DNA of 37,271 nucleotides from Candidatus Woesearchaeota archaeon (GCA_014729495.1 WJJV01000048.1:1-37271), one strand, 5' to 3'. Positions 22,011 through 24,005 are shown, counted from the first letter of the stretch. Program-made: numbers and translations. The notes: generated from the sequence alone by a model not told the origin.

Positions 22011-22436
22011 TCACTTCCTCTCTCTGTATCCAGTATCTTCCAGCATTGTGAGTATGATATTCCTGTTTTTTGGACCATCAAAATCACATAAAAATATGTC
22101 CTGCCATGTTCCAAGCATAAGCTCGCTGCCTTCTATAGGTATTGATTCACTAGGACCTATGATAGAGGCTTTTATGTGCGCTGCCGCATTATTGTCGACC
22201 TTATCATGCAGCCATCGCCCTTCAGGCACAAGCTTTTCAAGAGCATTGAGGATATCCTTTTTTACATTAGGATCTGCGTTCTCATTGATGGTTATGGCAG
22301 CAGTTGCATGAGGAACATATATGCTGCAGATTCCTCTCTTGATTCCTGAATGTGCAACTACCTCTTTGACCTTGCCTGTTATGTCAACTAGCTCATACTT
22401 TGCTGATGTTGAAATGCTTATTCGCTTCTGCATCAT
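22011..22436 (-). CDS. yjbQ: YjbQ/UPF0047 family protein
   Basis: VPHATAAITINENADP, HD..NNAAAHIKAS, LGTWQDIFLCDFDGP. The ORF-track extension to 22508 runs through tRNA-Cys and is spurious. Confidence 0.92.
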   Translation of the reverse strand: MMQKRISISTSAKYELVDITGKVKEVVAHSGIKRGICSIYVPHATAAITINENADPNVKKDILNALEKLVPEGRWLHDKVDNNAAAHIKASIIGPSESIPIEGSELMLGTWQDIFLCDFDGPKNRNIILTMLEDTGYRERK

Positions 22437-22438
22437 GA

Positions 22439-22557
22439 AGGCGGAGCCGGGATTTGAACCCGGAATCTTCGGGATCCGCAGATCATCGATGATTCCTTTC
22501 ATGATCATCTCATCATCCCGTTGCAGCCGAATGCCTTAGCCGTTTGGCCACTCCGCC
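22439..22557 (-). tRNA. tRNA-Cys(GCA) with 47-nt intron at 37/38 (22474-22520)
   Basis: Acceptor stem GGCGGAG/CTCCGCC with U73; anticodon stem TTCGG/CCGAA; T-arm CCGGG-TTCAAAT-CCCGG; BHB helix CTGC/GCGG; mature length 72 nt. Confidence 0.95.
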
Positions 22558-22610
22558 AACGCACAAATAATCAAGACCAATAAAGCAGTCATGTATTATT
22601 AGTCGTATTA

Positions 22611-22677
22611 TTAGTTGTCTAAAAAGACAACTAAAAAAGACAAAACTGCCGGCATTAAGCTTGTCCGGCGTTTTTGC
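22611..22677. terminator. Hairpins/T-tracts between the two tRNA genes
   Basis: Perfect 10-bp IR TTAGTTGTCT-AAAA-AGACAACTAA (22611-22634), and a GCCGG..CCGGC hairpin followed by T-runs on the minus strand. Confidence 0.45.
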
Positions 22678-22687
22678 CTTTATTAAA

Positions 22688-22875
22688 CGGACCCAGAGGG
22701 ACTTCCGAACCTTTTATGACCCTGATGATCATAAGGATATTCGAACCCTCGATCCTCAGCTTGCTTTAGGCTGTTTCAAAACCTTGAAAACAGCCATTAG
22801 AAGGCTGATGCCTTATTTGCCCAGCAATGCGCTTCCTAAGAAGAGCTCATGGCTGCCAGACTAGGCTATGGGTCC
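22688..22875 (-). tRNA. tRNA-Arg(TCT) with three introns (19/20, 37/38, 59/60)
   Basis: Exons 22875-22856, 22816-22798, 22761-22740 and 22701-22688 join to a 75-nt cloverleaf GGACCCA TA GCCT AGTCTGGATA AGGC A TCAGC CTTCTAA GCTGA GGATC GAGGG TTCGAAT CCCTC TGGGTCC G. Each junction folds as a BHB. Confidence 0.93.
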
Positions 22876-22900
22876 GTAAATCAAGAATTGAGAGCTTTTG

Positions 22901-22915
22901 TTTATAAATATTATG
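22901..22915 (-). promoter_or_regulatory. TATA promoter of tRNA-Arg
   Basis: Minus-strand TATTTATAAA ending about 25 nt upstream of the mature 5' end. Confidence 0.6.
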
Positions 22916-22925
22916 GCATCGCAGC

Positions 22926-24005
22926 TCATGTAAGCCATGTCTTCTGGTTCTTGAGCTTTTCAGGAAGATACTTGTCTATCACATAGTTCAGATTGTATTT
23001 GGCAAATGCCTGCTGCTCTGCTCTCTTGCCTTGCTTGAGCATGAGCCTGAGAGCCTTCTCCCAGTCCTTGTTCTCATGGACAAAAGGATCATTCTTTATT
23101 CCATCCTTTATCCTCTTTATATCTACCTCTTTAAGAGGGTGTGTAGGAAGCTTATAGTCAAGTATGTCCTGAGGAGTCACTCCTATGAACTTTGCATTGG
23201 GAACGCAGAAGAACTGGTTTATATGGGCAGCATTTCCTGATCCCACCTTTAGTGTCCTGTATATATTGAGGAATCCATAAGGGTCTCCGTCTGTGAATAC
23301 ATAGACCGGAAGCTTCTTCTGGTCACTAAGACGTCTTATGAACCTTCTGCATGCCCTTGTGGGAACACCGCCCATGCTGATAAGTATGCAGTTGGCCTTT
23401 TTCCAGTATCCATGCTTGACAAGCCTCTGGAACATACCTGCTGTCTCTATCGCGAGTATAAATTTTGCATTGGTCTCAAACTTAAGTTCCTCAACTGATG
23501 TGGGCACAGAATATGCTCCTGAACCGAATTTAGTGCAGTCAACCTTTATTGTCTTGCCTGTCTCATCCTTGTCAACAACAACAAGCCTGCCTGCCACAGC
23601 ACCCCCTTTCTCTTCGGGTATGAATCCTAGCTGTTCCCGGTTAACAGATATCATGGCTTCTATATCATCCATGACAGTATCTGATTCTGGCTGTTCCTTG
23701 AACATGGCATCTCCCCAGTTCTTGCTCACATAATACATCTCTCTCTTTGTGGCTATATCATCATTCTCAATTATCTTCTTTGACTCATTCATCATGAGAA
23801 GGGTCTGGGCAAAGGTCTTGATTGTAGACGCCGCCAGCGCTCTCTTCATAGTCTTTCCCTTGAGCTCAAAGTAGCCGTCTTTAGGATTATAGGTTACATT
23901 CTGGAGGGATCTTATGGGCATCTCAAGTAAAGGGGCTTTTTTCTTCACTATGGAATTATGCACATCCTTAGCTATGCTCCTGAGGCTTTTTATGACATCA
24001 CTCAT
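22926..24005 (-). CDS. top6A: DNA topoisomerase VI subunit A
   Basis: TKREMYY (catalytic Tyr), [36 protein letters not shown] 24005 overlaps the top6B stop. Confidence 0.96.

Follow-up and report, generated by a model that had tools for sequence, protein, structure and literature searches.

A candidate tRNA-Arg(UCU) gene in four exons

On the minus strand of the window, by which we mean the whole 37,271-nucleotide stretch of archaeal DNA analysed here, positions 22875-22688 very probably constitute a genuine tRNA-Arg(UCU) gene composed of four exons and three small introns of the protein-spliced type. Exon 1 (22875-22856, 20 nt), delimited by the ARAGORN fold and a splice search, carries the 5′ strands of the acceptor and D stems and the D loop up to G19. 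It is followed at site 19/20, in the D loop, by intron 1 (22855-22817, 39 nt), and then by exon 2 (22816-22798, 19 nt), which runs from A20 to A37 and supplies the D-stem 3′ strand, the anticodon-stem 5′ strand and the anticodon UCU. Intron 2 (22797-22762, 36 nt) occupies the canonical site 37/38 in the anticodon loop. Exon 3 (22761-22740, 22 nt) extends from A38 to A59 and comprises the anticodon-stem 3′ strand, the variable loop, the T-stem 5′ strand and the T loop as far as A59, where intron 3 (22739-22702, 38 nt) interrupts the T loop at site 59/60. Exon 4 (22701-22688, 14 nt) contributes U60, the 3′ strands of the T and acceptor stems and the discriminator G73; CCA is not encoded at the 3′ end of the gene. 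An original prediction, made by reading this DNA alone, had placed the three introns at these coordinates and sites and with these lengths, and it was correct to the base; orthologous genes of relatives confirm the sites.

The four exons lie in their normal order on the same strand, inside a stretch of 188 nt, which distinguishes the arrangement from split and permuted tRNA genes. Joined by their coordinates, they yield a 75-nt RNA that ARAGORN folds as tRNA-Arg(tct), in agreement with the identity assigned originally, with 21 of 21 stem pairs formed (7-bp acceptor, 4-bp D, 5-bp anticodon and 5-bp T stems), the T loop TTCGAAT and G as discriminator. Classical arginine identity nucleotides are A20, C35 and a purine at position 73. 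In the joined exons the anticodon is UCU, exon 2 opens with A20, and C35 and G73 are both present, so the restoration of these identity elements on splicing, as claimed before, is visible in the product, for which aminoacylation with arginine is predicted.

In archaea, the strict bulge-helix-bulge (BHB) splice motif consists of a 4-bp central helix flanked on either strand by a 3-nt bulge that is cut after its second base. For intron 1, GUCU at 22861-22858 (G15-U17a) pairs with GGGC at 22822-22819 at all four positions, between the bulges GG^C (22857-22855) and AA^A (22818-22816). For intron 3, UUCG at 22745-22742 (U54-G57) likewise forms four of four pairs with CGGA at 22707-22704, and the bulges are AA^U (22741-22739) and AG^U (22703-22701). 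Both of these motifs had been proposed in the original prediction and are present in the sequence. The central helix of intron 2, formed by CUUC at 22803-22800 (C32-C35) and AAAG at 22767-22764, has three of four pairs, with a single C·A mismatch adjacent to its 5′ bulge; the bulges are UA^A (22799-22797) and CA^A (22763-22761). The outer and inner helices of the three BHBs are mostly paired, and all three splice motifs deviate little from the strict hBHBh′ form.

The boundaries of intron 1 are unique, and the spliced product is the same whether intron 2 is placed at 36/37, 37/38 or 38/39 and intron 3 at 59/60 or 60/61; the register of the BHB led us to choose 37/38 and 59/60. When all three BHBs and the four tRNA stems are forced to form, the fold has a free energy of −64.2 kcal/mol versus −73.9 kcal/mol for the minimum free energy (MFE) fold, in which a longer helix swallows the 5′ bulge of intron 3. 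Locally, the BHB folds of introns 1, 2 and 3 lie 3.9, 1.8 and 4.0 kcal/mol above the respective MFE. The BHB folds are near-optimal, and none is the MFE structure.

A TATA box (TTTATAAA, 22908-22901, minus strand) begins 33 nt ahead of tRNA position 1, within the 50 nt that separate the tRNA gene from the preceding gene for the A subunit of topoisomerase VI, and a run of three T nucleotides (22687-22685, minus strand) directly follows G73. Judged from sequence, the former would serve as the promoter and the latter as a possible transcription stop. In 27 of 34 orthologous loci, the start of a TTTAWA motif falls within −45 to −22, in most cases at −32 or −33, and the 3′ flank is T-rich in most orthologues too. 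Among eight flanking open reading frames (ORFs), Pfam recognizes topoisomerase VI A and B, a UPF0047 protein, an HTH protein and a glycosyltransferase, and no homing endonuclease. Inspection by eye reveals no C/D-box guide RNA in any of the three introns or in the downstream spacer of 130 nt, and Rfam finds no credible match there (best E values of 1.2 to 2.1, far below gathering scores).

The downstream neighbour is a tRNA-Cys(GCA) gene (22557-22439, minus strand) with a 47-nt intron at the canonical site 37/38, and this Arg-Cys tRNA pair recurs in relatives. The cysteine intron starts with CGGGATGATGAG and holds a second GATGAT, both of which resemble box C (RUGAUGA). The cysteine introns of the same-genus locus L008 and of genome G017 (L114) also start with CGG(G/T)ATGATGAG. 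This intron could be a guide-like RNA; a clear box D is not seen in it.

Standard tRNA finders overlook the arginine gene, as had been anticipated. ARAGORN reports no genes in the whole window, Rfam at gathering scores returns only the neighbouring tRNA at 22439-22557, and even with E relaxed to 10 Rfam gives no RF00005 match over 22688-22875 when 22300-23000 is scanned. A home-made search similar to SPLITS enumerates BHB-like candidates in a region, removes up to three of them and scores the remainder as a cloverleaf by means of 21 pairs and 13 conserved-base checks, with a maximum score of 27.5. The top solution at this locus consists of exactly the three introns described above and scores 26.0 of 27.5. 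Phenylalanine and pyrrolysine (Pyl) solutions, obtained here when candidates are ranked by BHB score alone, are spurious, and cloverleaf scoring was used instead.

Intron sites in orthologous genes of the order

BLAST of the locus against 41 genomes (its own and 40 relatives) matched 12 of them. A pattern derived from exon 2 (ATARKGCNNCRGCCTTCTA) has one match each in 82 of 201 genomes of the order, or in 80 of 199 when the two unpublished genomes included in that count (G147 and G137) are left aside; the same pattern written backwards, as a control, gives a single match in total. Introns inside exon 2 are invisible to this sampling because the pattern demands a contiguous exon 2. The resulting set of Arg(UCU) orthologues covers 37 other genomes, with eight loci from BLAST and 29 of 30 loci from the exon-2 pattern. 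Rows dropped from it are L105 (the same locus as L007), L009 and L011 (Arg(CCU)), L010 (spurious) and L013 and L014 (other tRNAs). Spliced alignment misplaced the introns in four of the 37 (L104, L114, L115 and L124), which have divergent acceptor stems, and so these were re-solved.

The number of introns per orthologous gene varies from none (15 genomes) through one (7) and two (8) to three (7). All 44 introns, which are 11 to 111 nt long, reside at the same three sites, with 17 genomes having an intron at 19/20, 17 at 37/38 and 10 at 59/60. These sites are occupied in 22 of the 37 other genomes, and the insert sequences are unrelated. Thus, 19/20, 37/38 and 59/60 are order-wide insertion hot spots, of which zero to three are occupied among 38 genomes. 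A relative of the same genus (G004) has a 101-nt intron at 19/20, a 20-nt intron at 37/38 and none at 59/60, and the Arg(UCU) gene of a genome of the same family (G005) is intron-less; intron turnover is therefore fast.

The 101-nt D-loop intron of G004 (locus L008) contains a long hairpin (GTGGGCATAAAAACTTCGTTTTTAGCCCAC) as well as GATGA and CTGA motifs. Its hairpin resembles one that lies upstream of a tRNA-Lys gene in G013 (L014), and the intron might represent a small inserted element or serve as a guide RNA.

Conservation of the splice motifs was assessed for 45 of 47 introns, those of the window included and two mis-registered ones omitted, against a control in which the 3′ site was slid by 1-3 nt. 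Central-helix positions are paired in 67 of 72 cells at site 19/20 (0.93, versus 0.34 in the slid control), in 58 of 68 cells at 37/38 (0.85 versus 0.49) and in all 40 cells across the 10 introns at 59/60 (1.00 versus 0.43). At the last of these sites, one genome carries a double change from G57-C to A57-U. The intron-internal helix at 19/20 is paired in 37 of 42 cells, and its first position uses AU, UA, GC, CG and GU, five pair types that amount to covariation. Orthologues that lack introns match the Rfam tRNA model with 68.6 to 71.9 bits. One of these, from the same family (69.8 bits), is identical to the spliced product described above at 69 of 75 positions.

Arginine decoding and the tRNA set of the genome

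Counted over stop-to-stop frames of at least 300 codons, AGA occurs 17.6 times and AGG 24.7 times per 1,000 codons, and the four CGN codons together occur 3.0 times. The statement in the original prediction that AGA codons are abundant is borne out by these counts: of 12,086 arginine codons, 4,706 are AGA and 6,586 are AGG, together 11,292 (93%). A home-made census of tRNA genes contains Arg(UCG), Arg(GCG) and Arg(UCU), to which a regex search adds a tRNA-Arg(CCU) gene (G000:C124:3409-3509, plus strand) with one 26-nt intron at 29/30, in the anticodon stem. ARAGORN misreads this gene as tRNA-Leu(cag). Both Arg(UCU) and Arg(CCU) bear introns, and therefore both decoders of the dominant AGR codons are interrupted; the main arginine decoders are all in this state.

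A second tRNA-Arg(UCU) gene, the intact copy that would speak against the original prediction, was not found by the exon-2 pattern, the regex search or the census in this assembly; because the assembly is 91% complete and consists of 134 contigs, another copy could be missing. The ARAGORN call 'tRNA-Arg(tct)' at G000:C4:13876-14021 is not such a copy, as BHB-aware splicing converts it into a tRNA-Ser(UGA) with a long variable arm and G73.

For the genome as a whole, Rfam reports 18 tRNAs, and ARAGORN with introns allowed reports 28, several of them misread. The census recovers 30 tRNA genes, of which 7 have no intron, 13 have one, 7 have two and 3 have three. With 23 of the 30 bearing introns, disruption is the norm in this genome. 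In the census, 4 genes have D-loop introns and 7 have introns at 59/60; further introns lie at 37/38, in the anticodon stem and, in 5 solutions, in the variable arm. The variable-arm solutions comprise three serine genes and doubtful parses on C85 and C131. Parses of class II tRNAs (Ser and Leu) are approximate. Besides Arg(UCU), three-intron solutions were obtained for an Asn(GUU) gene (C126:9333-9468) and a Leu-like gene (C85:988-1172), both with less certain parses.

Several features of the other tRNA genes deserve mention in their own right. The variable-arm inserts of tRNA-Ser with the anticodons UGA, GCU and GGA (G000:C4:13877-14021, C51:5815-5954 and C126:3766-3893) all start with TTCGGGATACCTT; they may represent one intron family copied between isoacceptors, or else an unusual variable arm. 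Seven tRNA genes (Ser, Lys, Glu, Asn, Ile, Arg(GCG) and one more) lie within 11 kb at G000:C126:3766-15025, and five of the seven have one to three introns. In the same region (G000:C126:4465-4577, plus strand), a duplicate of the first 16 nt of tRNA-Glu(CUC) lies directly upstream of that gene, and after it comes a roughly 95-nt element in which GCAACCGGAG occurs twice. A duplicated 5′ tRNA piece with the element CTCCTAGTTGCT...GCAACCGGAG also precedes tRNA-Arg(CCU) at locus L009 of a same-genus genome (G001). Such an arrangement might be the scar of an integration event or might represent a small RNA.

Splicing enzymes and the proposed maturation of the tRNA

The genome encodes the ligase RtcB (C66:175-1461, 555 bits) and one gene for the tRNA-splicing endonuclease EndA, located on contig G000:C89 (L015:1474-2106, minus strand) head-to-head with an RNase Z gene (L015:2240-3163, plus strand). 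The EndA protein has 210 amino acids, with one N-terminal and one catalytic domain; PF01974 and PF02778 score 98.4 and 65 bits in the genome search and 96.8 and 62.8 bits on the protein. Its closest solved relatives are the catalytic alpha subunit of Nanoarchaeum equitans (3iey_A, E = 5e-38), the Methanopyrus kandleri fusion protein (5x89) and the alpha4 enzyme of Methanocaldococcus jannaschii (1a79, E = 5.8e-33). Alignment with the M. jannaschii protein is end-to-end with a single one-residue gap. Compared with the Aeropyrum pernix alpha subunit, the protein has a 10-residue gap at the site of the crenarchaeal loop, and compared with N. equitans alpha it has a 6-residue gap in the loop just before the catalytic His. 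Nine residues separate the catalytic Tyr and His as read from the sequences, which is the M. jannaschii spacing, and the segment that begins with the catalytic Tyr and ends just before the catalytic His is 10 residues long in all 80 Woesearchaeal EndAs (this one and those of 79 relatives). The typing of EndA suggested alongside the original prediction thus gives one alpha-type gene of M. jannaschii-like length, and we infer that the enzyme is of the alpha4 type. The features of an (alpha-beta)2 system, two genes and a specificity loop insert, are not seen, although a very divergent beta subunit is possible; nor does a 210-residue protein correspond to the three-unit epsilon2 enzyme of ARMAN-2, with its roughly 390 residues.

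Further features of the protein are a C-terminal Trp (IRWTRP) and, at the N terminus, a Lys-rich tail of roughly 40 residues. Tails of at least 25 amino acids occur in 61 of the 80 EndAs, this one included, and 30 of these tails have at least 30% K+R, with start codons that are guessed.

Three other explanations of the locus have to be considered. Given three free deletions, many sequences can be pushed towards a cloverleaf, and 16 alternatives acceptable to ARAGORN exist in this region, which is what would be expected if the cloverleaf were a chance product of convenient deletions in non-coding DNA. However, cloverleaf scoring leaves one solution, at 26.0, and a shift of either gene end by one base lowers the score to at most 16.0. 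A genome-wide splice search anchored on the T arm and a 7-bp acceptor stem yields scores of at least 21 for 30 of 206 candidate regions, with the Arg(UCU) gene joint top; in the reversed, not complemented, genome none of 362 regions scores as high, and the maximum is 20.0. Together with the intron-less orthologues that the Rfam model recognizes outright, these results refute the chance explanation, whose probability we regard as negligible, and a chance origin of the cloverleaf is excluded. It is also highly improbable that the locus is a decaying tRNA pseudogene from which the inserts are never removed, with AGA read by another, unassembled tRNA. The incomplete assembly (91%, 134 contigs) and the departure of the BHB folds from the MFE are compatible with decay, but every one of the 21 stem pairs is retained in the exons along with the conserved nucleotides, a TATA box still precedes the gene and no other UCU gene emerges from pattern, regex or census. 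Moreover, the inserts retain BHB geometry at sites that 22 of the 37 other genomes fill with unrelated sequences, and introns are carried by 23 of the 30 recovered tRNA genes.

The remaining explanation accepts the gene as real and holds that the homotetramer reading of EndA is wrong, such that processing needs an unseen second subunit in an (alpha-beta)2 enzyme like those of Nanoarchaeum and Crenarchaeota. The closest solved relative is indeed the alpha subunit of the N. equitans (alpha-beta)2 enzyme, and a C-terminal Trp, such as the one in this protein, is said in PMC3488258 to occur only in the alpha subunits of (alpha-beta)2 enzymes. A tiny or divergent beta subunit, like the 96-residue one of Pyrobaculum (listed in PMC6379350), would escape our searches. 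Against this, a phmmer search with the alpha protein among 5,247 six-frame ORFs of at least 70 amino acids found nothing else below E = 0.8, whereas the beta chain of N. equitans matches this alpha protein at 3.4e-14. PF01974 has exactly one match in 38 of 41 genomes of the order, among them a one-contig genome rated 100% complete, and two matches in none; the three genomes without a match are 79%, 95% and 89% complete. Furthermore, alpha4-type EndAs are reported in several DPANN lineages in PMC5829648. A second subunit is therefore unlikely, if less so than decay or chance. One further point tells against processing of this gene by the EndA identified: in length it resembles narrow-specificity alpha4 enzymes, it has none of the loop inserts associated with broad specificity, and if the published loop rule were strict, the slightly relaxed motif of intron 2 would be a problem.

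The most plausible reading by a wide measure is that this is a functional, and apparently the only, tRNA-Arg(UCU) gene of an archaeon of the Woesearchaeales (DPANN). The structure of the gene, its splice motifs and the conservation of these motifs among relatives are shown, as is the occurrence of EndA and RtcB in the genome; transcription, cleavage and ligation, and the order of these steps, we infer as follows. Transcription from the TATA box at −33 would produce a precursor of about 188 nt with introns in the D, anticodon and T loops. At each junction, loop nucleotides would pair with the last nucleotides of the intron to form a 4-bp helix between two 3-nt bulges, and the single alpha-type EndA would cleave in every bulge, making six cuts in total. 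RtcB would then ligate the four exons (20+19+22+14 nt) into the 75-nt tRNA, to which CCA would be added, and the mature tRNA would read AGA. A look-up of sequencing runs that contain this DNA listed none of RNA, and two DNA or unspecified runs with 5-7% of its words, an outcome that carries no information on expression. The original prediction held that such a gene needs a broad-specificity endonuclease. This requirement is not established, because the three motifs are near the strict form and because the EndA is alpha-type without loop inserts, with no second subunit found.

Multi-intron and otherwise disrupted tRNA genes are already known in archaea, including DPANN, as the passages of Kaneta et al. 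2018 (PMC5829648) make clear. Those passages include tRNA predictions for a Woesearchaeote, take incomplete tRNA sets as pointers to hidden disrupted genes and link DPANN EndAs to an 'L3' loop. The DPANN archaea described there resemble the present case in that an alpha4-type EndA and many disrupted tRNA genes coincide in the same organism group; they differ with respect to the 'L3' loop, since our EndA and those of 79 relatives have M. jannaschii spacing and not the longer N. equitans loop. The passages of that paper considered here hold no gene-level account of this Arg(UCU) architecture or of its three sites, which figure 7 or the supplements may list, and a full-text literature search found no published description of multi-intron tRNA-Arg genes in Woesearchaeota.

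The original prediction referred triple-intron tRNAs mainly to the Thermoproteales and multi-intron ones to ARMAN-type DPANN. The host is placed in the Woesearchaeales and in neither of these groups, and disrupted tRNA genes in such DPANN have been published (PMC5829648). In the Thermoproteales, tRNA-Pro(UGG) of Pyrobaculum islandicum has introns at 25/26, 37/38 and 56/57 (Sugahara 2007/2008, cited in the review PMC4090602); the passages of this review name 59/60 among known non-canonical sites and do not name 19/20. Like the gene described here, the multi-intron tRNA genes of the Thermoproteales have three BHB introns per gene, one of them canonical, are missed by standard finders and show fast intron change between relatives. 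In contrast, the Thermoproteales are Crenarchaeota with an (alpha-beta)2 EndA, whereas the present host belongs to DPANN, its one EndA gene encodes an alpha-type enzyme without the crenarchaeal loop, and its non-canonical sites are 19/20 and 59/60. ARMAN-2 (Candidatus Micrarchaeum), which PMC3239211 and PMC3488258 describe as having disrupted tRNAs and a three-unit epsilon2 EndA, is likewise a DPANN archaeon with non-canonical and multiple tRNA introns. Its EndA is a 390-residue protein of three units (PMC6379350), unlike the 210-residue protein here with one N-terminal and one catalytic domain. A eukaryotic nuclear tRNA gene with the same layout, one intron in each of three arms, relies on other splicing machinery and has an independent origin.

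What the present case contributes, to a kind of feature already known in this lineage, is the existence of three order-wide hot spots with zero to three occupied and the interruption of the main arginine decoders. For annotation, neither ARAGORN nor the Rfam tRNA model picks up the only AGA decoder detected, in a genome in which AGA and AGG make up 93% of arginine codons. About two thirds of the recovered intron-bearing tRNA genes have introns where ARAGORN and Rfam cope poorly, and so tRNA counts are badly underestimated in such genomes. With zero to three of the shared sites occupied, the gene lends itself to the study of how BHB introns are gained and lost.

A single EndA without loop inserts fits the published loop rule awkwardly, and the gene, together with this single-gene enzyme, constitutes a direct test case for what sets the substrate range of EndA. 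We suggest only tentatively, and with considerable doubt, that the Woesearchaeales process dozens of tRNA introns at non-canonical positions with a single alpha-type EndA that lacks the crenarchaeal, ARMAN-2 and Nanoarchaeum loop inserts, to which the literature attributes broad specificity. If this is true, strict BHB recognition that ignores position may suffice for massive tRNA gene disruption. Alternatively, extra RNA contacts may come from another element of the enzyme, such as its Lys-rich N-terminal tail or its C-terminal Trp. Either option would revise the rule that a specific loop equals disrupted tRNA genes.
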